Part shown: positions 33,113 to 60,854 of the stretch, one piece after another
How positions within the stretch are numbered: position 1 is the stretch's first letter
How the letters are laid out: every line of letters begins with the position of its first letter
From: a virus
Length of the DNA: 64,000 bases
Strand: one strand, 5' to 3'
IMG/VR virus record: IMGVR_UViG_3300021387_000032
Location: 2,463-66,462 of that record
Position numbers and translations under genes: made by a program
The notes under the pieces: generated by a model
Databases searched by the model: none
What the model was told of the DNA's origin: nothing
The model's input: the letters and a program-made list of their open reading frames with translations, nothing else

Positions 33113-33116
33113 AATA

Positions 33117-33930: not shown

Positions 33931-33937
33931 AAAAATA

Positions 33938-37953: not shown

Positions 37954-38321
37954 ACAAGTTTGTCATAAAATTCAGTAATTACAAGTTCAATCAATACGGT
38001 AAATAATAGTGTCCCTCCAGTAATCCCAAGACCGATGCAGCTTCCTTTGAACGCTGTAGAACATCCTGAGACAAGAGGTTCAACGCCAATCATATGAGAC
38101 ACTGCTCCAATAAACAGTAAGGTGAGACTGAGCGAGCCAAGAAGTATGAAAACGAATATAAAAAACAATATGACATCGAGCAGTATCTTTTCAAAAGTTT
38201 TCAGCATCCGTCGTTTATCAATTTTCATAAGTCGCTCCTTAGAATGGCAGATCGTCTTCGTCCATTTCTTCTTCAATGTCAGAACCGAAGTTGGCGTATT
38301 TCTCAGCGAGGAAGTCCTCAC
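37950..38321 (-). CDS. Hypothetical membrane protein (true start probably MKIDKRR)
   Basis: Two hydrophobic segments. Confidence 0.5.
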   Translation of the reverse strand: MRTSSLRNTPTSVLTLKKKWTKTICHSKERLMKIDKRRMLKTFEKILLDVILFFIFVFILLGSLSLTLLFIGAVSHMIGVEPLVSGCSTAFKGSCIGLGITGGTLLFTVLIELVITEFYDKLV

Positions 38322-38781
38322 GAATCTTCACATACATTGACTTCAGATAAGCCTTCACTCCTGATTTACCATTGACTTCCCAGTTATAAGGACGGATAAT
38401 GAGATCAACGCTTTCGATATCCACGTCATCAAGCTCTCCTATCGTATCCTCATCCAAAAGAGTCTTGTTGGTCTTGGTGAGAAGGTATACTTTAGGCGGC
38501 TGGAATTTGTAAGACGCTACTACCTGAATATAACAGAGGGGTTTATCTCCCTCCTCTCTTGGTGGCAGGATCTTTACATTCCAACCGTCATCTTTCATTC
38601 TTTCGGCAAACACCTCGTCATCAATTACCACGCAGAAGTTACGATTGCCTGCACGGTTGTAAGGAGTTTCCTCACCTTTGAAGTTGCGAAACATGATACG
38701 CACATCTTCAAATACCACATTATCAGTTACTTTGTAATCAGCTTTTCTTTTGCTCTGTTTTGCTGCTGCTCTGGCTGCCAT
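38239..38781 (-). CDS. Single-stranded DNA-binding protein (phage type)
   Basis: FRNF.G...N..G.RNF core; acidic tail ending DDLPF; adjacent to the polymerase. Confidence 0.75.
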   Translation of the reverse strand: MAARAAAKQSKRKADYKVTDNVVFEDVRIMFRNFKGEETPYNRAGNRNFCVVIDDEVFAERMKDDGWNVKILPPREEGDKPLCYIQVVASYKFQPPKVYLLTKTNKTLLDEDTIGELDDVDIESVDLIIRPYNWEVNGKSGVKAYLKSMYVKIREDFLAEKYANFGSDIEEEMDEDDLPF

Positions 38782-38797
38782 AATATCCATCCTTTCT

Positions 38798-44023: not shown

Positions 44024-44959
44024 TTAACCTTCGAACATTTCATCTGTCATGTAGTCGATAATCGGACCATCTACATTGAAGTCGAGCAGGAAGTTTCTTT
44101 CACGGTCATTAATGAAGTCGATCGAGTCTTCTCTATATACATTGAAGATTCCGAAATCGATGTAGTTATCGCCTGTAGGATTTTCTTCGTTGTATCTCCA
44201 GCCTACTACCTGACCAGCTCTTGTCTTAGGAAGACCGAACGCTTCATAAACATCATTTAAGAACACAAATCCTTCTGCCTGGAGTCTTACATTGAATTCG
44301 TTCTGCTTCATCTGGACAAACATGTGGTTATACGCTGCGTCTTTTTTCCAATAAGGGGAAGCTTCATCAAAATATCTTGCATAGACACTGTGCTGAGTAG
44401 GATCTTTAATGTCGTAAGTCTTCTTTACGGTCTTGGATTTACCGTTCTCATCAGTGACTTTCTCTTTAACCTCAGCCTGCTTAAGACCGAGGTGGAACTT
44501 GCGATCGGCGTCTTCACCGTATTCCTCGATCACTCTCTTTCGGTAGTTCTTATATCCAGCATCAAGAGCCGCATAAGCCGCACATAAAGCTGCCTGTCTG
44601 TTCTTAAATATCTGGGTGCCTTTGAAGATTAAAAGAATCGATGCAATATCAACTGCTACTGCCGGTGCGTAAAGCTTAGCTACTTTGAGTGCCTTGCGAG
44701 CTTTTGTCTTAAGTTCTGGTTCGTCGTCCTCCTCTTCTTCGGAAATATCATTCTCCATTTCTTCATCTAATTCGAGTTCGTCAGTTTCTTCCTCCAGGAT
44801 TTCCGGGAGTTTGGTTGTTGCTTTGCAGGCGAGTACTGTTCCTGCGACAAGTCCTGCTACACCTGCTACGATCAGAAGCTGTGGTGATGCCTGTCTTACT
44901 TTGAATGTATGTTTTCTGAATCCAGATTTAACACTATTTACAATGTTATCTAATTTCAT
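44024..44959 (-). CDS. DUF6353-like membrane-anchored protein
   Basis: Hydrophobic N-terminus; GFVFLNDVY..FG...GQVVGW motif. Confidence 0.7.
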   Translation of the reverse strand: MKLDNIVNSVKSGFRKHTFKVRQASPQLLIVAGVAGLVAGTVLACKATTKLPEILEEETDELELDEEMENDISEEEEDDEPELKTKARKALKVAKLYAPAVAVDIASILLIFKGTQIFKNRQAALCAAYAALDAGYKNYRKRVIEEYGEDADRKFHLGLKQAEVKEKVTDENGKSKTVKKTYDIKDPTQHSVYARYFDEASPYWKKDAAYNHMFVQMKQNEFNVRLQAEGFVFLNDVYEAFGLPKTRAGQVVGWRYNEENPTGDNYIDFGIFNVYREDSIDFINDRERNFLLDFNVDGPIIDYMTDEMFEG

Positions 44960-45892: not shown

Positions 45893-45967
45893 TTGCAAAT
45901 ATCCTTTCGAAAACAAAAAGAGAGCCAGCGCATTGCCGACTCTCCCGTCTCTTGGAATCAGTATTTC

Positions 45968-46303
45968 CTATTTCTTGTCTTTGTCTTTACTACTTTTCTT
46001 CTTCGGTTTCTTTTCGTCCTTCTCCTCGACCTCCTTAGCCTCAACATCGATTATCTTGTCCTTTCTTCTGCCGAGAATCTTTCTGTCATCTTCGGGTTTA
46101 TACATTTCCACAATCTTCGGCATCAGTATTCTGTCAGCCGCTACTGCAATCGCTCCTCCGATCACCATAGCCCCTCCAAATTTAACTAATGTCGAGAGCG
46201 GAATTGATTTCACCGTTGATGAAACCATCTCTCCTGCTTTATCAATGACGTTATTCATGTCGATGTCATTGAGATTAAGGCTGTCCATATTAATGTTTTC
46301 CAT
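45968..46303 (-). CDS. Cassette 1 ORF, single TM with Lys-rich tail
   Basis: RBS GGAGG; lies between motif 46352 and the hairpin at ~45910. Confidence 0.75.
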   Translation of the reverse strand: MENINMDSLNLNDIDMNNVIDKAGEMVSSTVKSIPLSTLVKFGGAMVIGGAIAVAADRILMPKIVEMYKPEDDRKILGRRKDKIIDVEAKEVEEKDEKKPKKKSSKDKDKK

Positions 46304-46382
46304 TTTTTCTACCTCCGTAAATATAAACATTAACAATCTTGGAAATCGTTCCATAATAGCGTCTGTATTTTTTGCGATAGCC

Positions 46383-47204
46383 TTAGAAGAGGCTCTGATT
46401 GTTGTAAGTCGGTTCTGCAAAGAACTCAATAACAAGACACGGTTCTCCGCTTGGCGATATCTGTGAGGAGAAGGAAACATCAATCAGTCCGTTATCGATT
46501 CTCCAACCGAGGCTGTCTCCGTATTTAACGCCCTTGAGTCCCATTTCGTAGTAAACCTCATTCAAAGACACATAACACTCGTCAAGAAGATACCGGTTCA
46601 TCTCATTGATCGCCCTTTTTACTGACTCAATATCTGATCTGAAATATCTGTCGGATGCCGCATCATAGCAAAGTGTCCCCGGCTTAACCACAATTATGTC
46701 GTCTTCTACCGGTTCCTTGTCTTTGATACGGTCTTTCGCAACGGCGTCAGAAATTTCCTGCTCCTTCTTTTCACCGAGAATATCCGTAGCATTCTGCTTG
46801 TACAGCTTGTATGCCGTATCAATTCCCGCATAAGCAACCGTCATAGCTGCCAATCGGTTCTTCATCATCGAGTGTGATTTCAACACAAGGAAGATCCCGA
46901 CTGCTGTAGCAACTGTTGTAGGAATATAAAATTTCCAGGTTGTTTTAACGATGTTCTTTGCTCTGTCGAATGTCAGCTTTTTCTTTTCAGTTTCTTCTTC
47001 CTCTTCAGTAGTCTCCTCGATTTCTTCTGTATCTTCTTCCTCGGAAATATCATCCATTTCTTCAATTGCTTTAACCGCTTTTGGTGTCTCGTAAATTGCC
47101 ATAACTGTTGCGAATACAAGACTTCCGAGACCTATCGCTACACACAGTCCAGGTGCATTCTCTTTTGCGAACTTCTTGAGATTTTGTCCGAATGATTTAT
47201 TCAT
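46383..47204 (-). CDS. DUF6353-like protein
   Basis: YVSLNEVY..MGL...LGW. Confidence 0.7.
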   Translation of the reverse strand: MNKSFGQNLKKFAKENAPGLCVAIGLGSLVFATVMAIYETPKAVKAIEEMDDISEEEDTEEIEETTEEEEETEKKKLTFDRAKNIVKTTWKFYIPTTVATAVGIFLVLKSHSMMKNRLAAMTVAYAGIDTAYKLYKQNATDILGEKKEQEISDAVAKDRIKDKEPVEDDIIVVKPGTLCYDAASDRYFRSDIESVKRAINEMNRYLLDECYVSLNEVYYEMGLKGVKYGDSLGWRIDNGLIDVSFSSQISPSGEPCLVIEFFAEPTYNNQSLF

Positions 47205-47242
47205 TACTCGCTCCTTACTAATGGTTGGAAAATATAAAAATT

Positions 47243-47275
47243 AAAGAGAGACCTATGAATCTCATAGATCTCTCC
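47243..47275 (-). terminator. Cassette hairpin (near-identical copies at ~47882 and ~49473)
   Basis: GGAGAGATCTATGAGATTCATAGGTCTCTCTTT. Confidence 0.75.
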
Positions 47276-47285
47276 GTTTTGCGTC

Positions 47286-47465
47286 CTATTTCTTCTTATT
47301 AGACAGACTTGCGATTGTCTCAATCACCTTCTGTTCTAACTTTCTGTCGGCTATCGTATTGTCTACAATTTTGCCAGCGAGGGTTATTCCAAGTCCCCCG
47401 AAAGTCAAAATGTTCGAAACAATATTCAAACCTTTGTCTCCAAGTTCAATTTTAGGCAATTTCAT
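47286..47465 (-). CDS. Cassette 2 ORF (59 aa, not in ORF track)
   Basis: MKLPKIELGDKGLNIVSNILTFGGLG..., RBS AAAGGAG. Confidence 0.7.
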   Translation of the reverse strand: MKLPKIELGDKGLNIVSNILTFGGLGITLAGKIVDNTIADRKLEQKVIETIASLSNKKK

Positions 47466-47580
47466 TTCAATCTCCTTTCACGTCGTCTTTAAAATATAAA
47501 ATGGAAACGCTCTTCCATAATAGCAATTGTAAATTTTGCGTTTGACATTGATTAGAAAGAAAAGAGAGCCTGTTAGACTC

Positions 47581-47796
47581 TCATATGAACCTCTTAACCA
47601 GTTCACCAACTGTATTAGTGTCGGTCTCAAGATCCAGTTCAAGGTGAACCTTAACTCGTCCACCATCCTCGACGGAGACATCTATATCTCCAATCGTAGG
47701 ATCAATGTCGATATCAAGATTCTTCTTGATCTGTTTCTTAATGATCCAACCAATAATATTTTTTGTGAATCCAGTTCTTAATTTCATAATATCCAT
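47581..47796 (-). CDS. Cassette 3 ORF
   Basis: Lies between motif and hairpin. Confidence 0.7.
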   Translation of the reverse strand: MDIMKLRTGFTKNIIGWIIKKQIKKNLDIDIDPTIGDIDVSVEDGGRVKVHLELDLETDTNTVGELVKRFI

Positions 47797-47921
47797 TTCC
47801 TACCTCTCTTTTCTTCTTAAAAATTCGGTAATTTCTTCCATAAAAGAACCTGCATTTTTTGCGAATTTTGAGGCGAAAAACAAAGAGAGACCTATGAATC
47901 TCATAGATCTCTCCGTCCAAG

Positions 47922-48158
47922 CTATTTATTATTGACTATAAAATGTCTCTTCCCGTCGAAGAAGAGCAGGTCTTTACCTTGATTCTTCTTAAGGAGCTTA
48001 AATATCCGGTTATAACTTACCTTACCGCCGGTCTTATAAGCTTCATATACACCTATAATTACCGCGATAGAGACAAGTCCTACCGTGAATATCTCGTCCT
48101 TGTTGTAATCAAGTTCGTTCTTGATCCTGTTCAGTCTTCTCTCAAGTTTGTAATACAT
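47922..48158 (-). CDS. Cassette 4 ORF, single TM
   Basis: RBS GAAAGGAG. Confidence 0.7.
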   Translation of the reverse strand: MYYKLERRLNRIKNELDYNKDEIFTVGLVSIAVIIGVYEAYKTGGKVSYNRIFKLLKKNQGKDLLFFDGKRHFIVNNK

Positions 48159-48222
48159 TTTTTTACTCCTTTCAGTAAACAACAAATATCATTTGCATAA
48201 TAGGGGTTGTATTTTTTGCGAT

Positions 48223-49008
48223 TTACTTGAGATGGTACTCTGCTTCCAGGTAACACGGCTCGAATGGAACGTCAATACAAACACACTCGACATCAGGAGT
48301 CCCATCATCCAGAACACCGACATTAATTATGTAGTGGTTAAAGTCAAGCCAGTAGAGATAGTCATGCTCGTTTCCTACGTCCCAGCCGATCTTATCACCA
48401 TCCTCGGTCTCCTCAAGTCCTAAGAAAATATAAAATTCATTGAGTGTAACGTATCCTCGCAGTACATAGTTACGATTCAAGTGGTATTCAGCATCCATAA
48501 CAGCCTCTATGGTCGACTCAAAATATCTGTCTCCGAACCGATCATAAAACAGTATTTTCTCATTTGACCCGCCGAGTTTTCTGTTGGATGCGCTATAAAT
48601 ACCGCTTGCATAAATATCAGGAATGTCAGCTGTCTCCGCCGCAAGAGCTTCTATGATTCTCTGATGCGCTTCTTCCCCGTAAAGCTCTTTCAGTTTATCT
48701 TTATACAGCTCGTATTGCTTGTGAGATAACATATACGCCGCTGCAAGAGAGGCTTGTTGCTTCTTACCAAGATGATTTGCAAATATAATACACACGATTG
48801 TAGCAATCCCGACACCTATTGCCGGAGCATAATGTCTCGCACACACCTTAACCTCGTCCATAGTAGTCGGCTCTTCAAGCTCGTGAATATCTTTTTGGAC
48901 CTTTTCTGCTTTTCTCGCAGTAAGAATGAAGGTTGCGACGACTCCTGCTGAGGCTAAGACACTGAATATGGTTGGTGCGTGCTTCTCAACAGTCTTTAAT
49001 AAACTCAT
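48223..49008 (-). CDS. DUF6353-like protein
   Basis: GYVTLNEFY.FLGL...IGW. Confidence 0.7.
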   Translation of the reverse strand: MSLLKTVEKHAPTIFSVLASAGVVATFILTARKAEKVQKDIHELEEPTTMDEVKVCARHYAPAIGVGIATIVCIIFANHLGKKQQASLAAAYMLSHKQYELYKDKLKELYGEEAHQRIIEALAAETADIPDIYASGIYSASNRKLGGSNEKILFYDRFGDRYFESTIEAVMDAEYHLNRNYVLRGYVTLNEFYIFLGLEETEDGDKIGWDVGNEHDYLYWLDFNHYIINVGVLDDGTPDVECVCIDVPFEPCYLEAEYHLK

Positions 49009-49076
49009 TAATTCCTCCTTTCAGAAAATATAAAAAGAAGAGACCCGTACAACTTTGCACGAATCTCCTCCAAAAC

Positions 49077-49406
49077 TTATTTCAGCAAAATGTTAATAAG
49101 CTTACTGCCTAATGTCTTAGACGTGCCAGACTGATAGCCTTCTGCGTCTACTTTTAATGAGCGTTTAACCCACCAGGCAAGTATTCCTATCGATGCTGAC
49201 TTACCGACAATATCAACATATCTCTTAGTCTTGTTGTCGCGCTCGTTTTTACGATCATCGACTTCCACAGTCATCTGAGATATCTCCATTTCTGCCAGTT
49301 TTCCCAGCCGTTCAAGATAGGTTTCATAATCTTTGCCGCATGGATCTACTTCGTCCATCTTATCGACGATCTCATCCTGCAATTTTCTGACCTTTTCTAA
49401 ATCCAT
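49077..49406 (-). CDS. Cassette 5 ORF
   Basis: RBS; cassette context. Confidence 0.7.
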   Translation of the reverse strand: MDLEKVRKLQDEIVDKMDEVDPCGKDYETYLERLGKLAEMEISQMTVEVDDRKNERDNKTKRYVDIVGKSASIGILAWWVKRSLKVDAEGYQSGTSKTLGSKLINILLK

Positions 49407-49524
49407 TAGTCACTCCTTTCTAAAACTATGAAATAAATTCTCATAATAGCGTCTGTATTTTTTACGAAAAACAAAGAGAGACCTATGAATCTCATAAGTC
49501 TCTCCCCGATACGATACTTTTGAA

Positions 49525-49731
49525 TCAAAACATTTTATCAAGTTGATTCATCAGTACCTTTTTTGCAACATCCCTGACAAAGTTGTTCGCTTCTCTTGCA
49601 AATCCTCTGTATTTCTCAGGAATATCTATTTGTCCCGAGTCAATACGGTCTACTGCAAGGTGAACAAACAACAATACTGCTGTAGTTGATGCCACAATTA
49701 CTATTGGTTTGATGTTGATCTTCTTTTTCAT
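49525..49731 (-). CDS. Cassette 6 ORF, N-terminal TM
   Basis: Start MKKKINIK; RBS AGGAGG. Confidence 0.7.
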   Translation of the reverse strand: MKKKINIKPIVIVASTTAVLLFVHLAVDRIDSGQIDIPEKYRGFAREANNFVRDVAKKVLMNQLDKMF

Positions 49732-49810
49732 GTTACCTCCTGTGTTCAAACTGTACCGTCCATAATAGTAACTGTAAAATTTGCTTGAATATCCACAGGA
49801 AGAACTCAGT

Positions 49811-52800
49811 TTAGTTGGAATCACCTCTGTTAATCTTGATCAAGGCATATCGTCTGCCGTCATCATAGTTGCATACCCAGTCGTCTGCGTACATTTTTTC
49901 TTCATTTAATACAATCTCTCCACCGTAATAATGTCTTGTCATAATAGCCAGACAAGATACGAATCCTACCACGATTCCTACGATAAACATCAGAATATAA
50001 ATCACCGCAAGCATAAATTTCTCCTATTCCATTTATGAGGTTTGATACATTGATCGTTAAGACGGTCGATAGCTTCGAAATACTCATGGCTTTTGGCATA
50101 TAACCCCTTGCAATCGTAATAGTCGGCTATCAGAGCTGCTTTATAAAGTTGGATTATGATATGAATATCTTTCTCTCTGGCAAAACAAGAATCTATGTCG
50201 ATCATACATTTCTTAATGCCAAGTTTCTCGTCCAGGTTTTTGCGAGACGGAATATAACCGTTACATGCTCTGTGATATAGAGTATTTATCGGAATACCTG
50301 TTATTTCAGATGCGGTTTTTAAATCGACATACATATCCTCGCTCCTTTCTAATATTCATTTGCAAAAAGTAATGTCGTCCTACTGCGATCCGCTTCGGTG
50401 ATGATCAAAATATCACTGCCCTTGCGAAACCGGTAAGACGACACTATTTGGTCTCCGTATATTACAGCTTCATCGTTTGCTGCTTTGTCTTCCTTGTTCA
50501 CATTACCCCAGTTGCCATACATGTGTTTGTTAAAGGCATCGAGGCAAAAATATAAAAACGACTTATTGGACTCCATCTCGTTAAGTACTTTTGGAGTCGC
50601 AATAACTTCGCCCGATTCAAAGTTTCCAAGCATTATTTCTTTGCGTCCTTTCTATGCGCTAAAATGTTTATAATGTATGCTGATACACCGAACATTAAAG
50701 CTATGCCCGCTAATTTTTGTGTATTATCAATTCTCCGGTAAAGCATCTGGTTAACAATTCGCTGGCGATTAACCGTCTCAATAACTTCATCAATTGCCTC
50801 TCTTGCTTCCTCATCTACGTCCTGTCTGGCAAATATCCCGGAAGCAAGCTTAGCGTCTTTCGTAGTCCAAATTTTTTCGTTGTTCATTTAAGTTCCTCTT
50901 TCTTTTCTCTGATCATATTGTTCCAGGCTTTTCTTGCGACATTATCGTTCTCATGAGCAGTTCTAAATATCGCTTGAACAGAGGTATAAGGCAATTTTCG
51001 CGATAAAATCGGTCCTTTTGTGCCACACGCAGGACAAGTATACCAATCCTCTGTAAGAGTCCAACGATGACTTGGATGCCTCCCACACAGACATTTTTCA
51101 AGCGGTATCAGTTTCTCAGGCTTTTTCGATAAGTAATATCCAAGCTCTTTGCAATACTCCTTAAGATCTTCGTATGGAATATCTTTGATCGGATTGTTGT
51201 TATTCATTCATCTCCTCCTAAAATATCATCAAGCCAATCCTGATCTCCGAACCGGCGTGACATAAACAAGCCGTATTCCTCGTATACGTCATTTTGTTTT
51301 GCCAATCGTTCAAATATAACTCGCAGGGCTATATACTGAGCAACCGATAGCTTTGAAGATCCGGATTCTAAATTGCAAATATTTTGTCTTGAGAGTCCGA
51401 GAAATCTTCCAATAGCCGCACCTTTTACATTAACAAGACCGCGAATACGTTTCATTTCTTGCTGAAACTTAATTATTGTAGGATTGTCTTTAGTCATAAC
51501 TTCTACCTCGGTTTCGCTCCTTTCGAAAAAATATCATTCATCGTCAATGAGTTCTGATAACTCTTTTTCAAGATCGCCAATCTTACATTTTAATTGATTA
51601 ATTCGCTCCGTTTTTTCGAGTCTTTCAATACACGATTTGTCCATAAAGTCGTGCGTATTTATTTGGTATGTTTTATTGCGTTCTTTATCAATTCCGTAAT
51701 ATTTAAACGTGACAATATAACCACATAAATATGCGATTCTTACTATGTCATCAAAAGAAAAACTATTGCGTAGTATTTTGTTGTTGAAATACGTAATGGT
51801 TGTTCCTAAAAACATAGCCGCTTCTTTTCTGGAAATGTCAGAAGCCTTCAGCAATGATATGACTATATCTGATCGTGGACGATCGTTATATGTTATGCCA
51901 AATGTGGATAAGATTGGTACGTTAGGTAATGATTTGATCATCACAGCAGCTCCTTTTCAATAATGTAATAGCGTTTTGTTTCATGTTCGTCAGTTGAAGT
52001 TACTACAATCTCATATATGTGATCCAGAGCCTTTTCTTTTTCTAAAACTTCGACTTTAGGTTCATCTATCTCTCCAGGATCATATGGTTCCATAAGATCA
52101 ATCACAGCTTGATCAGCTAATTCTCGTGCCTTGTCTTTTGCTTTATCAACGGTAGAGCATACATCCATTAAATAATAAGATTCAGGATCGCCGCCATAAC
52201 TGCAATAATCTATCCAAATACATTCCATCACAACATATACTTTCATCGTATTACTCCTTTCTTTCAAAAAATTGTAGAAGTGATCTGATTTGATCGTGTG
52301 ATCTCCGCATTCCCTCAATTTGTTTCCTGAAAATATCATCATCGCAATTGAAATCTATCTTAATTGCAATAATGTCGTGTGGTTGATCATCGTTCATTCG
52401 TAATAGCGGCGACAATTCAAACGTAACAACTGCATCATCATCGAATATCCATCCCGCTTTCTCGAATGTTTTTATCGGATGCAAACCGAGTTCCATTAAT
52501 ACTTCATTTAAGAATAAATATCCCTGCCTTTTTAAAAGCACGTTGCAACGGTTTTCAATGTGACGCACAAACACCGCATTTCCATTTCCATCAGTCCAAT
52601 ACGGAGAGCTCTTGTCAAAGAATACTGAATATTTGTTTAATTCGATCATCTCTTTACTCCTTTACTTTAACGATAATATCCGGATTCCAGACGCAAATAG
52701 AGTCGACATCCCATGTATAAAAGATATTAATATCATGGAAGGTCTGCCAATCATTTGACAAAATTACTTCCATGGCATCGTAACGATCGTAGATCAAAGG

Positions 52801-53442
52801 AAGATTTAAACTATATACAGTCGTAATGAGTGTGTTGGCGTAATCGATCCTCCGATCCGCAATAAAATAATCAGTAGCGTCGCTCAACTTTTCAATTCTA
52901 AGAATTTTTGCTTCTGGTGATAACGTAAATTCAAACGATTCTTCAAGGCCCTCTAACCGAAACTCTTCGTTTTCACACCACTCTTTCCATCCGTATTTGG
53001 CATCTATTGGAGACGCCCATAAGCCGTTTGGTTTATCAAGCCTGCGATATTTCTTGTCACTGGTTACAGCTCGTTCAAGTCTTTGTTTATCGTAGTGGTT
53101 GGAACCGAAATGTATATAGCGATTGTTATTCATATTTACTCCTTTCGAAAAATATCTATTCATAATATTCTGCTAATTTAATCACTTTTTATCTAACTTA
53201 CTTTTTTTGTCAAATTCCTCGTCATCTTTACAATACATGGATTCTATAAACCAACAAAATACGGGATACTGTTTGTTCAATTCGATTGTTTTTATCATAA
53301 CTTCATAAGATGGATTTTCGCGTTCAACATTGGCTATTGCTTTTGTGGCAAGATTTTCGTCATTGTAAATTCCCACTAATTGAACGCTTGTTCCATAATC
53401 TTCCGTGTAAGCATCGACATATACTAAATATAATTTTTCCAT
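49811..53442 (-). other. Operon of ~11 small early genes, including HTH proteins (50002-50334, 51204-51497, 51534-51944), a conserved WG...IITEADRS protein (50349-50633) and a stand-alone DUF6353 C-terminal domain (52251-52649)
   Basis: Overlapping start/stop codons; HTH-like patterns. Confidence 0.65.
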
Positions 53443-53508
53443 CTCTTTACTCCTTTCAAAAATATAAAAAAGAGAGACTCATGATTTCTCACAAGTCTCT
53501 CCGTAGGG

Positions 53509-53763
53509 TTATGCCCCGATTACTCCTAACCTTTTAAGTTCGATAAGTGCCACCTTGAAATTATCTAAATTTTCTCCTTTAAGACCGCCCTTACTTTTTG
53601 AATTATCTACCGCCTGCAAAGCATGATTCAGCCAAATCAGAGCATCAATTACATCAACGTACTCTTTATTGTTGAATCGGTCTTTACCTTCGTCCGATAA
53701 CTTCTTTTCCTTTTCCATCAGCTGGTCCTGGAGTTCTTTTAAAGTTTTCAGATTTACAGTCAT
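53509..53763 (-). CDS. Cassette 7 ORF
   Basis: RBS GGAGGTG. Confidence 0.7.
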   Translation of the reverse strand: MTVNLKTLKELQDQLMEKEKKLSDEGKDRFNNKEYVDVIDALIWLNHALQAVDNSKSKGGLKGENLDNFKVALIELKRLGVIGA

Positions 53764-53888
53764 AGTCACACCTCCGTCAAAAAATATAAAAATAATACAG
53801 GACTCTTCCTGCATAATAGAAACTGTATTTTTTGCGAACGGAGAAAATCAAAAGGATTTGCAACGCTTACGCAAATCCTCGTATTACC

Positions 53889-54161
53889 TTATGATAACTT
53901 AGTCGGCGCTATAGAAATTACAATTGCTCTACCGATGTCGATCAAAATATCATCATTCATATCGAAATGAAACTCGTAGGAATGATAGTTATCCTTTATC
54001 GTCTGTACGAGTGTTGATTGCTCGTTCTCAGCCAATACAGTGACCACTATCCTTCTTGTGAGTTTCGATTCGAGTATGATAATATGATACTCATCTAACT
54101 CAGTAGTTATCATTGTTTCTGTTACTCCAACGTGCTTTCTTGGTAATTCGAAAAATTTCAT
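53889..54161 (-). CDS. Cassette 8 ORF, paralog of 57089-57349
   Basis: Shared leader DNA and protein pattern. Confidence 0.7.
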   Translation of the reverse strand: MKFFELPRKHVGVTETMITTELDEYHIIILESKLTRRIVVTVLAENEQSTLVQTIKDNYHSYEFHFDMNDDILIDIGRAIVISIAPTKLS

Positions 54162-54269
54162 AATTTCCTCCTTTTGATTACCACAAAATATCTTTTGTCG
54201 TAAAAGAGGCTGTAAATTATGCGAAAATACCCTAAAACACTCTAAAATACCCTAAAATCAGCCAAAATC

Positions 54270-54370
54270 GCCGAGAAGCCACTTAATAGCCCCATAGAGC
54301 GATTTATGTGCTTTTTCGACCCGTAGGTTCTGTTTTAAATTAACTCGCCTTAAATCGCCTCTCAGAGCCT
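54270..54370. repeat. Intergenic palindromic element, copy 3 of 3
   Basis: gccccatagagcgattta ... taaatcgcctctcag. Confidence 0.6.
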
Positions 54371-54470
54371 CGTTTTTCAACTACTTCCCTAAATTTTGCA
54401 TGATTTCCGGCAAAAACAAAGAGAACCTGCAAAATATCACAGATTCTCTACGATTTTTCATGTTACTTTT

Positions 54471-54740
54471 TTATTTCTCTTCGCACAATTTCGAAACCGC
54501 TGCCACTATCATATTATAAATAATACAGATTTCTTCATCGTCCAGAGAATCAACCGTTTTTCTGATAATAGCGCCTGCTTCTTTATAGTAGTCTTCAACG
54601 TTTTCGTCAAAAACTCTTTCCAAAAGAATACGGCACACAATATGATCGCTGGTAAAACTCTCTTTCATATACTTCAGAAATGTTTCGTTTACCATAATAT
54701 AGGTAGACGTTGCTTCTAATGTGTCTTTGAGATTTTTCAT
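54471..54740 (-). CDS. Cassette 9 ORF
   Basis: RBS; cassette context. Confidence 0.7.
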   Translation of the reverse strand: MKNLKDTLEATSTYIMVNETFLKYMKESFTSDHIVCRILLERVFDENVEDYYKEAGAIIRKTVDSLDDEEICIIYNMIVAAVSKLCEEK

Positions 54741-54845
54741 TTTTTACTCCTTTCAAATAGCATGAAATAATTCTCATAATAGAAGCTGTATTATTTGCGA
54801 AAAAGAAAAGAGAACCTGCAAAATATCACAGATTCTCCTGTCTGG

Positions 54846-55103
54846 CTAATGCTTTCTTCTCTCAGCTCTTATTTTCTGTACCATTCTCCTCCACTCAATA
54901 TATGGTTTACCTTTCAAAGAACCCGCCTTATGTTTTGAAATAAGCAAATATCCTTCCGGGCATTTTCTGAAATAGAAATCCTTTATTTGTAGAACTTTGC
55001 AATGTTCTAACATTGTTTTGGCTCTCTTCATTTCCTCTTTATCCCTAAGTGTGATATAATACCTATTACATCTCAGTCCAAGTCTTTCTCCAGTAGTTTT
55101 CAT
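54846..55103 (-). CDS. Cassette 10 ORF (basic)
   Basis: RBS; cassette context. Confidence 0.7.
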   Translation of the reverse strand: MKTTGERLGLRCNRYYITLRDKEEMKRAKTMLEHCKVLQIKDFYFRKCPEGYLLISKHKAGSLKGKPYIEWRRMVQKIRAERRKH

Positions 55104-55226
55104 ATCAAGCTCCTTTTAAAATATAACTGTAACTATTAGCCATAAAAGAGCTTGTAAAATCTGCGAAAGACTGGACAAAACCAAAGAGAGCCTGTAGACT
55201 CTGCTACGGGCTCTCCGGTTAGATTT

Positions 55227-55448
55227 CTACTTAATTACTGTCTCAGTGCCATCCCGTGCAATAAACTTATTTTCGATTTCGAAATTGACTCCTTTCTTGA
55301 TGATTCGATTTGTTGCTACGGTCGTGCCAATGATTGATCCAATAAGTCCTGCTAAGCAGCACCATGCTCCAATACCGGCCATTCCTACTAATAAAATACG
55401 ATCATCACTTTCCATAGAGTTCCATTTCTTCTTCAACTTCTTAATCAT
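55227..55448 (-). CDS. Cassette 11 ORF, single TM
   Basis: RBS; cassette context. Confidence 0.7.
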   Translation of the reverse strand: MIKKLKKKWNSMESDDRILLVGMAGIGAWCCLAGLIGSIIGTTVATNRIIKKGVNFEIENKFIARDGTETVIK

Positions 55449-55510
55449 TTTTGACTCCTTTCAGTAAAGTAAATATAACCTTTCATAATAGGAGCTGTAT
55501 TATTTGCGGA

Positions 55511-55735
55511 TCATTCGCGAGTCTCTACCCTGACAACCACTTTCTTGGATGTCTTGAGTTCACGCATATCCTTGGATAGTTCGAGCATCAGATAGTCATT
55601 TCCTTCTTCATCTGGGTATATCTTGATGACTCCCACATCCTTAACACCTTTTTTTCGTCCTAAAATATAACCAAAGCCGAACCATACAATCACCACTGCG
55701 ACGTATATAATCCCTGTAAGTGCTACGTTACTCAT
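55511..55735 (-). CDS. Small membrane protein
   Basis: N-terminal TM. Confidence 0.65.
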   Translation of the reverse strand: MSNVALTGIIYVAVVIVWFGFGYILGRKKGVKDVGVIKIYPDEEGNDYLMLELSKDMRELKTSKKVVVRVETRE

Positions 55736-55736
55736 A

Positions 55737-56069
55737 TCATGCTCCTTTGTGTGCTATAAGCTGAGCTGCGCGGTTCTTGATCTTCTCATCATATTTGAAG
55801 TCAAAGCCCGTGCTCCCGTCAAATCCGTCAAATTCCTTGTAATATGGTGCTTTCTTTGAAATATCAGGAAATTCCTGTGAAAGCCATACCAGTTCCTTAG
55901 CCCACTGAGACCACTGAGCGTCACTTACAACACTATCGTCCATCTCGTAGTAAATATAACTATGTACCAGGATCTGACGGCGTCTCTGGGAGATCTTTGC
56001 AAGTATTGCTTCGTCCCGATCCTCATAAATATCATTGTCAAGTAGTTTGTCTAAATCGAGTTTTGTCAT
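55737..56069 (-). CDS. Stand-alone NAD-dependent DNA ligase N-terminal (domain Ia)-like protein
   Basis: HSYIYYEMDDSVVSDAQW resembles LigA H...YY..D.P.ISDAEYD. Confidence 0.6.
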   Translation of the reverse strand: MTKLDLDKLLDNDIYEDRDEAILAKISQRRRQILVHSYIYYEMDDSVVSDAQWSQWAKELVWLSQEFPDISKKAPYYKEFDGFDGSTGFDFKYDEKIKNRAAQLIAHKGA

Positions 56070-56182
56070 TTTCTTCCTCCGGGAATTTTCCCTAATACTA
56101 AAATATCACCTGTTACGGTCTCCTGCGTACGGCAAAAACAAAAAGAGACCCGTGAGTTGTCTCACAAGTCTCCCAGAAAATA

Positions 56183-56419
56183 TCATTCGTATCTTACTAC
56201 AAGTCTGTGCCCTTCTTCAAAATCTTTATAAAGTGCCCCATATTCTTTGGATTCGTTTGCAAGCCATTTGAGATGCTTCTCTATAGTGTCATGTTTTATC
56301 GCTCTTAATAGAAGCTTTCCTCCGGCCCATATACCCATGAGTCCAAATATTTTATAGAGCGCATATTTTCCGTTCTCTTGTTCCATCGCACGTTTTCTTT
56401 CCTCTTGTTTTGTAGTCAT
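56183..56419 (-). CDS. Cassette 12 ORF
   Basis: RBS AAGGAGG. Confidence 0.7.
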   Translation of the reverse strand: MTTKQEERKRAMEQENGKYALYKIFGLMGIWAGGKLLLRAIKHDTIEKHLKWLANESKEYGALYKDFEEGHRLVVRYE

Positions 56420-56518
56420 GCTAACCTCCTTGTTAATTAGAATGATAATGTTCCATAAGAGTGTTTGTAAATTTTGCTAATCAGGTGGACTACTCACATG
56501 CGAAATAATTTGATAATT

Positions 56519-56701
56519 CTAATAATATATTTCACGTAACCACACTCTGTTATCGCCGTCTGGTCCTTGTACGTCAACAAGTTCGTGTTCGTCACAGATA
56601 AGATCGTGAGAAATCATTACTATTGCTTCCTTTGGTAATTCAGTTAGTAGTTCAATTAATTCTTTTACTGTCATGGGTTTCCTCCTAAAATAGTATGACA
56701 A
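56519..56701 (-). CDS. Small hypothetical protein (MTVKELIELL type; true start probably internal)
   Basis: Common phage motif; RBS GGAGG. Confidence 0.6.
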   Translation of the reverse strand: MSYYFRRKPMTVKELIELLTELPKEAIVMISHDLICDEHELVDVQGPDGDNRVWLREIYY

Positions 56702-56762
56702 GAATCATTTGCTAAAAGAAAAAGAGACCTACAAAATCGTAGATCTCTTTCGCTGCTGCGGA

Positions 56763-56987
56763 TCAGCTATGCACGGAACACCAAGTGGTTACCAAATCAT
56801 CGTCATCCGGATGATGGTTTCCGATTCTACGGTTGTACATACACGTTCCTTCAGTGCCATAGCCATGAGGACAAGGCATTTTACACCTTGAGTACTCACT
56901 GTCCATGTCTGAAACACGGATGTATTCTCCGATTTTCTCATTGAAAACCGTTCCGGCGTAGATGTAGATATCTTTTCCGTTTATCAT
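56763..56987 (-). CDS. Cassette 13 ORF, Cys/His-rich
   Basis: RBS AAAGGAGGTGA. Confidence 0.7.
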   Translation of the reverse strand: MINGKDIYIYAGTVFNEKIGEYIRVSDMDSEYSRCKMPCPHGYGTEGTCMYNRRIGNHHPDDDDLVTTWCSVHS

Positions 56988-57088
56988 AATCTGATCACCT
57001 CCTTTCGTCCATTAAAGAGCCTGCAAATTTTGCGGATAGAGAAAAGCCAAAAGGAGCTGCTATGAATATAACAACTCCTTATAAGTCC

Positions 57089-57349
57089 TTAGATCTTCTC
57101 GATTTCGATCAAGATTTCTCTCTCATACACAAATATTCTTATAGTGTCTTTTTCGAATTCGAATGTAAAAACGTTTCCATAATGCTTGCCGATCTTGTCC
57201 GAGAGGGTCGATACCTCTGTCGGTCCAAATATCGTGACCATCACGCGATCGTACAATTCGCTCGAATCAGATATCACTATCCAATATGTTCTGTCTTCCA
57301 TTGAAATCTCGACTTCACGAGTGTTTTTTGGAACTTTAATTGTGTTCAT
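57089..57349 (-). CDS. Cassette 14 ORF
   Basis: RBS; paralog of the cassette 8 ORF. Confidence 0.7.
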   Translation of the reverse strand: MNTIKVPKNTREVEISMEDRTYWIVISDSSELYDRVMVTIFGPTEVSTLSDKIGKHYGNVFTFEFEKDTIRIFVYEREILIEIEKI

Positions 57350-57399
57350 TTTAGTCCTCCTTTTGACTACAAAATATCTTTGTCGTAAAAGGACCTGTA

Positions 57400-57807
57400 T
57401 TATTTGCGAGCCCTACTCAAAAGCCAAAAGAAGCGTCTATATAAGTCGTAATATTTGTCTTTTCCACACGGTACAGGACTTCTTGCATTAAGCTTGTCGA
57501 ATGATAGTCCTTCCGTAACTCCGGTTAAAATATAACTTCCTATGACCTGGTCTGTACGCTTGGCAGCCTCTTCTATCATCTGAATACGGTCTGAGTAAAA
57601 CATCCGTTTAAGAGCTGTCTTTTCAGTACTGCTTGAGGTTGTTTTCTCACCTGGGGTTATTATTGATGAAGTATTAATCCCATCCAAAATATCACGCTTT
57701 TTCTTCCACAAATTGTATTGCAGACAGAAATGCTTAAGCTCGTAATACCTGTGCTTGTCGATCCAGTAAGGGTTCTTCTTTGAGACTTCTGCTCGAATAT
57801 CACTCAT
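57400..57807 (-). CDS. Conserved putative transcriptional regulator (ArpU/RinA-like)
   Basis: KHRYYELKHFCLQY...YRRFFWLL. Confidence 0.55.
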   Translation of the reverse strand: MSDIRAEVSKKNPYWIDKHRYYELKHFCLQYNLWKKKRDILDGINTSSIITPGEKTTSSSTEKTALKRMFYSDRIQMIEEAAKRTDQVIGSYILTGVTEGLSFDKLNARSPVPCGKDKYYDLYRRFFWLLSRARK

Positions 57808-58055
57808 CGTCCTTCTCCTTTCCAAAAGAATCCTGTTTCCTCGTACAAAAGCTTCGGGGAAATATAAAAATTGATGCGCCCGAATCTGCTGTCGATCTGA
57901 TCTACGCTTGTGACGAGTTCTCCGTTCCTGGTAGCTTTCCCAATCGGCAGCCAGCCAGCAATGATTCCGGCTCTTACCCACGAAGCGTCTTTACCATATA
58001 CCTTTGCAACAACCGATACCGGCACTGAACCTTGTGTGAATTCCTGCATTTGCAT
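57804..58055 (-). CDS. Winged-HTH excisionase / Cro-like protein
   Basis: VPVSVVAKVYGKDASWVRAGII. Confidence 0.55.
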   Translation of the reverse strand: MQMQEFTQGSVPVSVVAKVYGKDASWVRAGIIAGWLPIGKATRNGELVTSVDQIDSRFGRINFYISPKLLYEETGFFWKGEGR

Positions 58056-58140
58056 TTACCTCCTTCTAAGAGGCATTGTATAACAGTAATCAGAAAATAT
58101 AAAAAAGAAACAGGTGGGGTTTAGTTAAGGACAAAAAGAA

Positions 58141-58211
58141 AAGAAATTGTTGGGATTCGAACCCAAGTCTCATAACCGAAGTTATGCGTGTTCCCACTAC
58201 ACCACATTCTT
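58141..58211 (-). ncRNA. tRNA-like RNA with a C(UUCG)G tetraloop in place of the anticodon loop (cassette 15)
   Basis: D arm GTGT-AGTGGGA-ACAC; arm CATAAC-TTCG-GTTATG; T arm TTGGG-TTCGAAT-CCCAA; imperfect acceptor stem; no encoded CCA. Confidence 0.75.
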
Positions 58212-58287
58212 TCCATAATAGAACCTGCAAATTTTGCGAATTTTAGAAAAGAAAAAGAGCCCTACAAAGTTGTAGAGCTCCGTTCTC

Positions 58288-58536
58288 TCAAACGCCCCAT
58301 ATAGCGTATCTGTAAGGGACGCAGAAATCATGGATATCTTTCTGAATCTTTTTCAGCTTTCTTCTGGTTGCGAAGAAAGTGATTTTATAGCTTGTCCCAT
58401 CCTCTGTCATACGGGCTAATTCAACCCCGTTATAATAAAGGATCATACAAACCTTATCCATCTCTTCTTCATCAACCCAGATGTTGCTGTCCATATCTTC
58501 CCAATATCTTTTTAATTCTGCTATTAATTTACCCAT
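58288..58536 (-). CDS. Cassette 16 ORF
   Basis: RBS AGGAGG. Confidence 0.7.
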   Translation of the reverse strand: MGKLIAELKRYWEDMDSNIWVDEEEMDKVCMILYYNGVELARMTEDGTSYKITFFATRRKLKKIQKDIHDFCVPYRYAIWGV

Positions 58537-58628
58537 TTCATACCTCCTATTTATCTGGTTATCGTTTGCATAAGAGACTCTGTATTTTTTGCGAAGAATA
58601 TCGCTTGAATAAAAAAGAAAAGAGGCGG

Positions 58629-58772
58629 TTAACCTCTCTTCCTAAAGTCTTCGCTAACTTTTCCAATAATACACAAACATGCTATAGTTGCCGATAGATA
58701 GACCATAAAATATCCGGCTGTTTTAAGTCCTAATTTCATGATCCACCACAACACTTTAAACATTGTTCTCAT
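58629..58772 (-). CDS. Cassette 17 ORF (47 aa, hydrophobic, not in ORF track)
   Basis: MRTMFKVLWWIMKLGLKTAGYF..., RBS GAAAGGAG. Confidence 0.65.
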   Translation of the reverse strand: MRTMFKVLWWIMKLGLKTAGYFMVYLSATIACLCIIGKVSEDFRKRG

Positions 58773-58847
58773 ATTAATCACTCCTTTCCATTAAAGAGTC
58801 TGTATCTTTTGCGGAAAAATATCCCGGACAAAAAGAAAAGAGAAGCA

Positions 58848-59075
58848 TTAAAGCTCCTCCACTCTTCTCCAATACGGATCTCTTGTTGCGTATTCAATCC
58901 GGTATTTTGCTATTCTTCCACAGTCCTTAGCTGCGGTTGTCGCTACACTTGCAACACCGATGATACCATTGAGCACCGCGTAAGATTCCATAATCTTCGC
59001 AGCGCCGTAGTTCACGGTTGCTTTGAATGCGATTCCGCCGATTTCTTTTCCTGCTTCTTTAATAATATTCAACAT
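58848..59075 (-). CDS. Cassette 18 ORF
   Basis: RBS GGAGG. Confidence 0.7.
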   Translation of the reverse strand: MLNIIKEAGKEIGGIAFKATVNYGAAKIMESYAVLNGIIGVASVATTAAKDCGRIAKYRIEYATRDPYWRRVEEL

Positions 59076-59096
59076 TTTTCTACCTCCAAATATTTA

Positions 59097-59432
59097 TCAA
59101 AAGACGTATTTTTTCCATAACAGAACTTGCAATTTTTGCGAATTTTTCCACGTTCTCATGGTGAGTTCACAAGGATAATCCTCATAACCCAAAATATCTG
59201 GAGTTATTATGCCTTCTATCACACCTTGTATCAATTCTGCTTCGTAGCGCATGTACGGAATAATATAATCAGGAAGTTCCCGGTGTAATTTGTTACAGTT
59301 TTTGCACTGCCATCTTTGTACCAGAATCTCTCTTGTTTCCCGATTCTTAGTCCTGACTAATCGTTTTACCTTGTCATACTTTCTTAAATATCCACCGCAG
59401 ACTGGGCATTGTTTTTCTCCTTCTCTAATCAT
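59097..59432 (-). CDS. DUF6431-like Zn-ribbon protein
   Basis: CPVC...RWQCKNC..LHRELPD..PY.RY. Confidence 0.7.
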   Translation of the reverse strand: MIREGEKQCPVCGGYLRKYDKVKRLVRTKNRETREILVQRWQCKNCNKLHRELPDYIIPYMRYEAELIQGVIEGIITPDILGYEDYPCELTMRTWKNSQKLQVLLWKKYVF

Positions 59433-59488
59433 ACAATCACCCACTTTTATGGTATCATAATTTCGAGGTGTTGGAAGGAGTAAATATA

Positions 59489-60616
59489 ATGGCAAAAAGA
59501 AAACCTAACAAAAGGAGGAGACTACCTAATGGTTTTGGACAAATCAGCGAACTTAAAGGAAAGAATCTCAGGAAACCGTTTCGTGCAATGGTCACCGTTG
59601 GTAAGAATGACAAAGGACGACCTATTTGCAAACTGTTAAAGCCGGAAGCGTATTTCGAAACTTACAACGGGGCTTATGCTGCTTTGCTCGAATATAACAA
59701 AAACCCGTATGAGAAGATGATCGAGATGACCATGACCGAGCTATATGAGAAATGGTCTGACTGGTACTTTGACAAGATTACTGAATCGTCTAAGAAGAAT
59801 ATCATTACAGCCTGGAAGTACTGTCATCCGCTGCATAATATGAAAGTCACAGAGATCCGTCCGATGCATATACGAGACTGTATTGAGAATGCTTACAGGG
59901 ATATCGATGGCGAGAAACAATACGCATCAGCAAATGTTAAAAGCCGTATGAAAAGCTTGTGTAATATGTTATTCGATTACGCTGTTGAGTATGATGTGGT
60001 TGAGCATAACATAGCTCGTGAGATGAAGCTTTCGACATACACAAGACCAGAAGCTAAGGATCACCATATGCCGTTTACTGACAGTGAGATGAAAATACTT
60101 TGGGAACACACAAATATCCCTTTTGTCAAGATCATCCTTATACACTGCTATTCAGGATGGAGACCGCTTGAGATGTGCAGTTTGAAAGTAGTCGACACAA
60201 ATATAACCGAGTGGACTTTTAAAGGTGGCGTAAAGACAGAATCAGGCAAAAACAGAACAGTACCGATACATACGAAAGTAAGACCTTTTGTGGAAGAGTT
60301 CTATAACCTCGCAATAAGTCTTGGGAGCGAATATCTTTTTAATGTAATCCGGGAGCATTCTTTCGAGTATGATGATCTCTCGTCCTATTCCTCGTATCGG
60401 TATTATTTTAAAAAAGTAGTGGCCGAGTTAAATATCAACCCCGACCACAAACCGCATGATTGCCGTAAACATTTTGTCACGATGGCTAAAAAGAATAAAG
60501 TTGATGAGTATGCGATCAAATATCTTGTTGGACATAAGATAAACGATTTGACCGAAAGAGTATACACATCACGAGATTTCGATTGGCTTAGAACCGAACT
60601 GGAAAAACTAAAATAG
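59489..60616 (+). CDS. int: Tyrosine integrase
   Basis: SGWR, KT..G..R.VP, HDCR, LVGH, VY catalytic residues; N-terminal LPNGFG arm-binding region. Confidence 0.93.
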   Translation: MAKRKPNKRRRLPNGFGQISELKGKNLRKPFRAMVTVGKNDKGRPICKLLKPEAYFETYNGAYAALLEYNKNPYEKMIEMTMTELYEKWSDWYFDKITESSKKNIITAWKYCHPLHNMKVTEIRPMHIRDCIENAYRDIDGEKQYASANVKSRMKSLCNMLFDYAVEYDVVEHNIAREMKLSTYTRPEAKDHHMPFTDSEMKILWEHTNIPFVKIILIHCYSGWRPLEMCSLKVVDTNITEWTFKGGVKTESGKNRTVPIHTKVRPFVEEFYNLAISLGSEYLFNVIREHSFEYDDLSSYSSYRYYFKKVVAELNINPDHKPHDCRKHFVTMAKKNKVDEYAIKYLVGHKINDLTERVYTSRDFDWLRTELEKLK

Positions 60617-60847
60617 ATTGTAGGACTTGTAGGAATAGCTGATATGTATGGTGTAGGCTTGATGTAGGAATAATGTATGAATATCCCAGGTTTGACTACT
60701 TTTAAGTACTTCTTAGAACCGCCCAGTTCTTTGTAGTTTCTACACCGTGTTATAAGTCTCTCAGGATTTCATCGTCTTCTTCAGAAGATAAAACCCACGA
60801 AATATCATTCCTACACCGGTCTAAATGTAGGAATAATGTAGGAATAG
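60617..60847. other. Putative attP with arm-type integrase sites
   Basis: TGTAGGAATA at 60628, 60663, 60826 and 60837; inverted 9-nt copy at 60807-60815; variants at 60619, 60652 and 60674. Confidence 0.7.
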
Positions 60848-60854
60848 ACCGCTA

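Follow-up and report, generated by a model that had tools for sequence, protein, structure and literature searches.

The stretch of viral DNA analysed here, which we call the window, comprises 64,000 nucleotides (positions 2,463 to 66,462) of IMG/VR record IMGVR_UViG_3300021387_000032, a phage genome assembled as a single contig of 66,462 bp whose ends overlap by about 107 bp, as in circular assemblies. Nearly all genes of the genome lie on the minus strand. The genome encodes a terminase, a lysin, a tyrosine integrase, a primase-polymerase of 1371 amino acids (aa) and three DUF6353 paralogs, and it derives from a temperate siphovirus, found in the gut, of the supercluster that holds Faecalibacterium phage FP_oengus, Lactococcus phage 1706 and the Arthrobacter cluster AM phages. 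Between positions 45910 and 59141 lies an array of 18 small units, each headed by a copy of the same 25-bp motif, and it is this array that concerns us. We consider it probable that the array is a hyperplastic early region made of single-gene transcription units, and report that in relatives such units are lost, gained, replaced and reshuffled, with ends enriched at the promoters and terminators.

Anatomy of the array

The motif CATAATAGNNNNTGTAWWTTTTGCG, written here on the plus strand while genes and units run on the minus strand, occurs 19 times in the window when up to three mismatches are allowed, in one orientation only, against 0.02 matches expected and a maximum of one match in 100 shuffled sequences. 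On the coding strand its consensus reads CGCAAAAWWTACAGnnTCTATTATG. A weight matrix of 31 nt built from the 19 sites scores them at 29.4–43.9 bits and the rest of the 64 kb below 8 bits on both strands, and with it no site of 10 bits or more was found where the genome begins (first 2,600 bases, including the 2,462 that precede the window). Eighteen of the copies head the 18 units (Table 1), so that every site described in an earlier, sequence-only reading of this DNA was recovered; the 19th, outside the array span, stands at 30527-30551. Motif and gene are co-oriented at 19/19 sites. In the 17 units that carry an open reading frame (ORF) the motif ends 16–50 nt before the start codon, and an AGGAG-type ribosome-binding site precedes the ORF.

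Each of these 17 units holds exactly one ORF, of 47–111 aa, and the remaining unit (58133-58239) a single tRNA-like gene, which agrees with the description of one small ORF or RNA per unit. The tRNA-like gene was called by ARAGORN and scores 45.9 bits against the Rfam tRNA model, whose gathering score is 29. ARAGORN gives its anticodon as '(tc)' without an assignment, and a 6-bp stem with a TTCG loop replaces the 7-nt anticodon loop (58141-58212, minus strand). Sites combining a hairpin with a T tract number 29 between positions 44000 and 61000, compared with 9.7 ± 3.2 in shuffled sequences, and 17 such sites on the minus strand close the 3' ends of 17/17 ORF units, as had been described. Other details of the sequence-only reading were likewise borne out: where units abut, at 49467 and 54800, the coding strand reads TTTTT-CGT/CGC-AAA across the junction, and two core ORFs, 57400-57981 and 59097-59495, have 3' ends that run into the motifs at 57384-57408 and 59116-59140, respectively.

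Some units resemble one another. Terminator copies within the window are 83–95% identical (families D5, D7 and D14), which suggests that they spread by copying; the terminator of unit 10 is 95% identical to that of unit 9 (family D7). The ORFs of units 8 and 14 are paralogs (32% identity, E 2e-5) with similar promoters and leaders.

Table 1. Units of the array and other genes and sites discussed in the text (positions in the window; all readings of function are predictions).
Feature	Span	Strand	Promoter	Gene	Terminator hairpin	Remarks
Unit 1	45910-46377	-	46352-46376	ORF 45968-46303, 111 aa	45918-45946	
Unit 2	47243-47541	-	47516-47540	ORF 47286-47465, 59 aa	47245-47275	
Unit 3	47556-47864	-	47839-47863	ORF 47581-47796, 71 aa	47564-47582	phrog_18243
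Unit 4	47876-48221	-	48196-48220	ORF 47922-48158, 78 aa	47884-47914	terminator family D5
Unit 5	49032-49467	-	49442-49466	ORF 49077-49406, 109 aa	49036-49071	
Unit 6	49467-49786	-	49761-49785	ORF 49525-49731, 68 aa	49472-49508	
Unit 7	53466-53837	-	53812-53836	ORF 53509-53763, 84 aa	53471-53502	
Unit 8	53844-54224	-	54199-54223	ORF 53889-54161, 90 aa	53852-53880	
Unit 9	54412-54800	-	54775-54799	ORF 54471-54740, 89 aa	54420-54449	
Unit 10	54800-55166	-	55141-55165	ORF 54846-55103, 85 aa	54808-54839	
Unit 11	55177-55509	-	55484-55508	ORF 55227-55448, 73 aa	55187-55216	hydrophobic
Unit 12	56134-56479	-	56454-56478	ORF 56183-56419, 78 aa	56143-56174	
Unit 13	56714-57035	-	57010-57034	ORF 56763-56987, 74 aa	56720-56751	Cys/His-rich
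Unit 14	57049-57409	-	57384-57408	ORF 57089-57349, 86 aa	57051-57080	
Unit 15	58133-58239	-	58214-58238	tRNA-like gene 58141-58212		gene begins 1-2 nt after promoter
Unit 16	58247-58594	-	58569-58593	ORF 58288-58536, 82 aa	58256-58281	
Unit 17	58611-58814	-	58789-58813	ORF 58629-58772, 47 aa	58615-58643	hydrophobic
Unit 18	58830-59141	-	59116-59140	ORF 58848-59075, 75 aa	58839-58860	
19th promoter copy		-	30527-30551			ahead of endonuclease-exonuclease-RNA polymerase genes
RNA polymerase	26861-29629	-		YonO-like, single-chain (two-barrel)		terminal helix-turn-helix modules; proposed motif reader
Exonuclease	29626-30186	-				phrog_3953, E 8.7e-80; possible partner of annealing protein
Single-strand annealing protein homolog	38239-38883	-				52% identity over 146 aa to Circum gp69; start probably downstream of longest-ORF start
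Tyrosine integrase	59468-60616	+				Pfam Phage_integrase; divergent from array, not integron type

The motif in related viral loci

An exact-pattern scan of IMG/VR viral contigs gave at least 109 related stretches, and 65 of 112 related loci match core genes of the window at 64–73% nucleotide identity. Among the listed stretches the weight matrix finds 398 sites, two or more of them in each of 88 loci, and within a locus they always share one strand. At 339/390 sites there is a ribosome-binding site and a start codon in the next 70 nt, compared with 132/390 random positions, and a terminator-like hairpin lies upstream of 117/390 sites, compared with 30/390 controls, so the arrangement seen in the window is conserved throughout the family. 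In FP_oengus the gene order is that of the window (integrase, small genes, DUF6353 genes, polymerase), with gp02 as the counterpart of window 57804-58055 and gp03 that of 57400-57803. Searching the phage collection returned no near DNA match to the window, a metagenome scan with the integrase as query returned no relative, and with the ORF at 55737-56069 as anchor only three viral loci were found, all distant.

Gain, loss and reshuffling of units in relatives

The genes carried by the units are poorly conserved. By tblastn in the listed loci, 16 of the 17 cassette ORFs are without a match, the ORF of unit 3 alone being found, in 16 loci; the anchor genes (59097-59495, 57804-58055 and the DUF6353 genes) match 33–85 of the same loci. 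Thirteen of the 17 have no PHROG match at E<=0.01, and only one has a match below 1e-5. We compared pairs of IMG/VR loci at an identity of at least 85% (88–100% for the top-ranked pairs), which yielded 303 insertion/deletion (indel) or replacement events, 96 after de-duplication. Break points fall within 10 nt of the motif in 45 of 384 cases against an expectation of 1.95% (p 2e-21), and of the break points in intergenic DNA 37 of 202 do so against 6.5% (p 1e-8, about 2.8-fold); per nucleotide, break points reach a density of about 1 at the motif, which falls to about 0.2 at distances of 100–500 nt. Unit-sized indels are flanked by an overlap of 21–38 bp that is the motif itself. For instance, a 312-bp unit of locus L045 is absent from L015, and L015 keeps one promoter, a hybrid of the L045 pair that flanks the unit, its 5' half coming from one and its 3' half from the other.

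Phages of Arthrobacter behave similarly. Between the same two anchor units Mudcat and Correa have no extra unit, Cheesy has one, Circum two and Dynamite three, and the junctions fall in a repeated block consisting of the terminator T tract, GACCRT and the 5' half of the promoter. In the accessible text of the paper on Circum and Mudcat, phage Galaxy is the only one for which an integrase is reported (PMC5513430). Since Circum and Mudcat vary without a reported integrase, the changes in unit content would not need one.

Nearer relatives were sought as contigs of at least 85% likeness in four gut-metagenome runs from four studies (X2, X4, X5 and X7); parts of the array without contig cover were not counted as absent. 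Joints at 53465->55481 (X5) and 53464->54775 (X7) remove runs of units and keep one promoter before the gene at 53182-53442. In X2 the ORF of unit 9 is skipped between its own terminator and promoter (54449->54775) and unit 16 is skipped (58240->58612); in X4 unit 12 is replaced by 34 letters that resemble a bare terminator (56138->56481), the ORF of unit 7 stands behind the promoter of unit 1 (53793->46350), and unit 6 lies beside the promoter of unit 18 (59147->49467). The order of units 9, 12 and 13 is changed in one X2 contig, where a copy of the promoter lies at a joint, and another X2 joint (59140->58816) leads from the end of the unit 18 promoter back to the spacer ahead of unit 18, as in a tandem copy or a circle. 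From 25 listed joints (15 in the joint table and 10 with intervening letters) three outside the array and one duplicate were dropped, leaving 21. Among these, 26 of 41 joint ends lie in promoter or terminator zones that occupy 11.1% of the array (p 2e-15); for 10 of the 21 joints this is true of both ends. Other contig joints fall inside genes.

The sequence-only reading had proposed that units are gained and lost as modules by recombination at or near a short TCGCAA junction, and that aligning relatives would reveal it. The alignments bear out the modules: cassette content varies and break points are enriched at motif and terminator, even if 73/96 events are not motif-bounded. What did not hold is the fixed junction, for there is no single TCGCAA position; break points are scattered, some within the motif or a hairpin, others at the T tract or about 30 nt into a leader. 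Such scattered crossovers and the hybrid promoters are consistent with homologous recombination and not with cutting at a specific site.

A candidate reader of the promoter

The genome encodes a polymerase of 922 aa that matches phrog_4291 from end to end (E=0) and contains the sequences RYPH and GADFDGD; its Pfam matches, RdRP and HTH, are both weak. Sequence comparison with solved structures returned no relative of the polymerase, the helix-turn-helix repeats alone being matched. By tblastn the protein is found in 250 phage records, all below 60% identity, among them FP_oengus (48%), Arthrobacter cluster AM phages (47%), Lactococcus phage 1706 (39.5%) and phages of Gordonia, Streptomyces and Rhodococcus. 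A preprint that describes the supercluster proposes the protein as a YonO-like RNA polymerase (10.1101/842583). In SPbeta, YonO transcribes the late genes, and the founding paper, in the part available, leaves the YonO promoter sequence undefined (PMC5467207).

Phages that carry this polymerase also carry versions of the motif. FP_oengus has seven copies of GCGAAAAATRCAGNCTCCYTTATG where none is expected, Arthrobacter phage Circum has eight copies of CGCGTAAATTACAnGGGCTATAATG before small genes, with homologous motifs in four further AM phages, and Lactococcus phage 1706 has ten copies of TTTTACAnnnnCTATAGTAGA, most of them with a T tract in front and a ribosome-binding site immediately behind. 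The core common to them is TTACA-N4-CTAT, and the upstream blocks CGC..AAA and TTACA are kept in phages of Clostridia-like hosts, Lactococcus and Arthrobacter. Motif and polymerase thus co-occur across hosts of two phyla in a comparison limited to polymerase-bearing phages. A motif kept over such a distance, and always alongside the polymerase, would most simply be the promoter of that polymerase. We infer that the phage's own YonO-like enzyme reads the motif, presumably by means of its helix-turn-helix modules.

The position of the motif relative to its genes bears on the start site. The ribosome-binding site starts 3 nt past the motif in units 13 and 17; in unit 15 the tRNA-like gene begins 1–2 nt after it, and FP_oengus has a tRNA-like sequence 3 nt past one copy. 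In phage 1706 at most a few nt separate CTATAGT from the ribosome-binding site at 8/10 sites. With ribosome-binding sites 3 nt, and a tRNA-like gene 1–2 nt, behind the motif, the start of transcription should lie at its 3' end, probably at the G's there.

The 19th copy of the motif precedes the genes that include the polymerase itself. Its leader of 75 nt (30452-30526, minus strand) contains a long hairpin, AGAGAAAC...GTTTCTCT, and then a T run, TTTTGCTTTTTT; the hairpin may be an attenuator that controls polymerase synthesis.

Proposed mechanism and competing explanations

Our preferred explanation, which we hold to be more probable than its rivals taken together, is that the array consists of promoter units for a phage polymerase that are exchanged by homologous recombination at the terminator–promoter repeats. 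Each unit would bring a 25-bp promoter at its head and an intrinsic terminator at its end, so that the repeats at every boundary would supply some 25–70 bp of portable homology. Recombination between these repeats could delete, duplicate, replace or reorder units, and each incoming ORF would end up with a working promoter and terminator. The annealing protein homolog and the exonuclease encoded in the window (Table 1) may promote it; Circum gp69, the relative of the former, is annotated as 'single strand annealing protein'. The integrase would take no part, the logic being that of the promoter-early stem-loop (PeSL) cassettes of T4-type phages and not that of integrons. A bolder version, which we regard as doubtful, would have genes exchanged in plug-and-play fashion across a Firmicutes/Actinobacteria supercluster, as mini-circles excised and reinserted by the annealing protein and exonuclease, with the polymerase self-encoded and possibly delivered by the virion.

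Part of the evidence weighs against exchange at the repeats, and some of it favours the view that these are ordinary single-gene early units, subject to random illegitimate recombination, among which selection keeps the indels that fall between intact units. The motif is absent from either end in 73 of the 96 events, and only 11/96 are motif-bounded in both sequences; a variable slot that recurs is found at the start of a gene instead of a motif. Loci with the motif are favoured by both the collecting pattern and the weight matrix, the contig joints often have short sides of 20–35 nt that may be the repeated motif only, several joints come from a single X2 contig, and contigs from mixed strains may be chimeras. 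There is moreover little intergenic space, most of it terminator and promoter, so survivors must end there; the enrichment at unit edges is therefore partly expected from selection, since events that leave genes intact alone survive, and in intergenic DNA it is only about 2.8-fold. Yet selection of this kind does not readily account for overlaps of 21–38 bp at unit-sized indels that are the motif, for the L015 promoter that is a hybrid of two L045 copies, for the same pattern at the T-tract/promoter block of the Arthrobacter phages, for terminator copies similar enough to suggest copying (D5, D7, D14), or for units that near relatives have in new places, with promoters or terminators at the joints. 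We think this explanation unlikely. The integron-like system suggested by the sequence-only reading, in which the integrase would move cassettes site-specifically at TCGCAA and the hairpins would be attC-like, fares far worse and seems to us highly improbable. Its appeal is evident, because a tyrosine integrase does lie divergently at the head of an array of co-oriented, small, mostly unrelated ORFs ending in hairpins, and the X2 joint 59140->58816 would fit a circular cassette, although equally a tandem copy. The integrase, however, gives only weak XerA/XerC/XerD-type matches in NCBIfam (NF040815 at 61 bits with a cut-off of 220, XerC at 33 and XerD at 31, cut-offs ranging over 220–335), and no integron-integrase model is listed in that scan. 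The cores of attC sites read RYYYAAC ... GTTRRRY, and RYYYAAC/GTTRRRY pairs occur in 0/17 hairpin regions (±60 nt) and in 2 of 1000 random 150-nt windows; in build, the hairpins resemble intrinsic terminators, having GC stems and T tracts. Integron cassettes share a promoter, whereas all 18 units have a motif copy of their own and the array is without a shared one. Break points, finally, are spread over motif, T tract, hairpin and leader, and Circum and Mudcat, for which no integrase is reported (PMC5513430), gain and lose units in the same way.

A separate challenge concerns who reads the motif. It could be a host sigma-A (sigma-70-type) promoter with TATTAT or TATAAT as its -10 element, the phage polymerase serving other genes, and several points that tell against a phage polymerase as reader fall into place if this is so. 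The block resembles TATAAT, and the actinophage version of the motif, as in Circum, has an exact TATAAT at its end; in a note on Gordonia phage Vardy the 50-bp intergenic motif of that phage is taken for a sigma-70 promoter (PMC9671010); YonO in SPbeta serves late genes (PMC5467207); and the polymerase gene itself lies downstream of a motif copy (30527-30551), an arrangement that poses no problem if the host enzyme is the reader. On our reading, a polymerase gene behind its own motif means that the enzyme must come with the virion or first arise from another promoter. Virion delivery would remove this difficulty, and the label 'structural protein' given to the phage 1706 homolog, orf75 (32083-35172), in its GenBank record, the sole basis for it, is a hint that the polymerase may be carried in the virion. 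Against a host promoter stands the motif itself. The sigma-70-like sites show no excess (54 found, 46.5 ± 6.6 expected), no -35 element at 17 bp upstream spacing is conserved among the motif sites of the window, and the base that should be A-11 is A in 10/19 window sites and in 58% of the 398 sites in relatives. FP_oengus has CCTTTATG at the -10 place, a poor -10 element. With TATTAT as -10, transcription would start 6–8 nt further on, within the ribosome-binding site or the tRNA-like genes, and the conserved CGC..AAA and TTACA blocks travel with the phage polymerase across hosts. The motif behaves as a promoter, though probably not one of sigma-70 or other host type, and we judge the sigma-A alternative quite improbable.

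Other features of the region

The three DUF6353 paralogs (phrog_2152; 44024-44959, 46383-47204 and 48223-49008, minus strand) are interleaved with the cassettes, and in relatives the N-terminal region of the gene at the DUF6353-type position is a recurrent variable slot. Between units 6 and 7 lies a block (49811-53442, minus strand) of about 12 small, tightly packed ORFs without promoters or terminators of their own. These match 0–9 of 109 related loci and are almost as unconserved as the cassette ORFs, so not all accessory genes are cassettes. The 187 nt between units 8 and 9 (54225-54411) contain TACCCTAAAA-like repeats and a sole ORF of 40 aa with a TTG start (54258-54380), and fold somewhat better than shuffled sequences (z -2.46); the summed contig depth of this bin is the highest among the tabulated bins in run X2 and the second highest in X7.

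A decamer, TTTTATATTT, has 22 sites, the first at 1339 and the last at 58104; every one is on the minus (coding) strand, and 0.57 are expected. It is found in leaders, directly after terminators before core genes, and within the genes for DNA polymerase and helicase. The idea that it serves core genes as a -10 element was rejected, since it stands too near the ribosome-binding sites and is present within genes as well. The integrase gene is followed at once (60617-60850) by repeats of TGTAGGAAT-like words that resemble the arm-type sites of attP.

Relation to known systems and significance

The closest parallel is the PeSL system of T4-type phages, in which promoter and stem-loop repeats stand before ORFans, indels are bounded by repeats, and chimeric elements and mini-circles are found; homologous recombination between the repeats has been proposed as the mechanism, with expression signals carried along with each gene (Arbiol et al. 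2010, PMC2839356). The array shares with it a repeated promoter and stem-loop terminator upstream of ORFans in a hyperplastic region, as well as indels and replacements between close relatives that are repeat-bounded and leave a chimeric element (73/96 events not being motif-bounded). It differs in that the promoter does not fit the sigma-70 type and is probably read by a phage-encoded single-chain polymerase, that the phages are siphoviruses of Gram-positive hosts, some of them temperate, and that stem-loop and promoter boxes are not interleaved, the former being a terminator of its own that stands upstream and has a T tract. For PeSL, mini-circles are known; here there are contigs only, among which the joint 59140->58816 fits a circle or a tandem copy. 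Further work on the PeSL cassettes of T4-type phages is reportedly that of Comeau et al. in 2014. The morons of lambdoid phages are likewise said to be promoter-gene-terminator units between core genes (Juhala et al. and Hendrix et al., both in 2000), and the array resembles them in having accessory genes with their own promoter and terminator between conserved genes. Morons, however, are scattered single insertions with host-type promoters and are often expressed from the prophage, whereas here 18 units, mostly in tandem runs, share one family-specific promoter.

Within the supercluster itself, the Vardy note (Gordonia, cluster DJ) describes five intergenic copies of a TATAAT-containing motif with small, often membrane-protein genes and predicted terminators (PMC9671010). 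Vardy belongs to the same supercluster, and we liken its 50-bp motif to ours by description only; the available text of the note draws no link to a phage polymerase, to other host phyla or to gene turnover. In the literature on the group we found no description of a link between promoter and polymerase or of unit shuffling; supplements were outside the coverage, and an earlier mention is possible. Of the texts found, the Vardy note alone mentions a related motif; the word 'promoter' is absent from the main text of the two papers on the group.

In summary, our results would extend modular shuffling of the PeSL type from T4-like myoviruses to distant and widespread siphoviruses of Gram-positive bacteria, in a supercluster that includes common gut phages (at least 109 IMG/VR stretches by one exact-pattern scan). 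They also provide a testable promoter consensus for YonO-like single-chain polymerases. The units are a rich source of small early ORFans, possibly genes for host takeover or anti-defence. Were the plug-and-play version true, a captured ORF would be expressed at once in any host, and such exchange would help to explain how one phage lineage has come to cross bacterial phyla.

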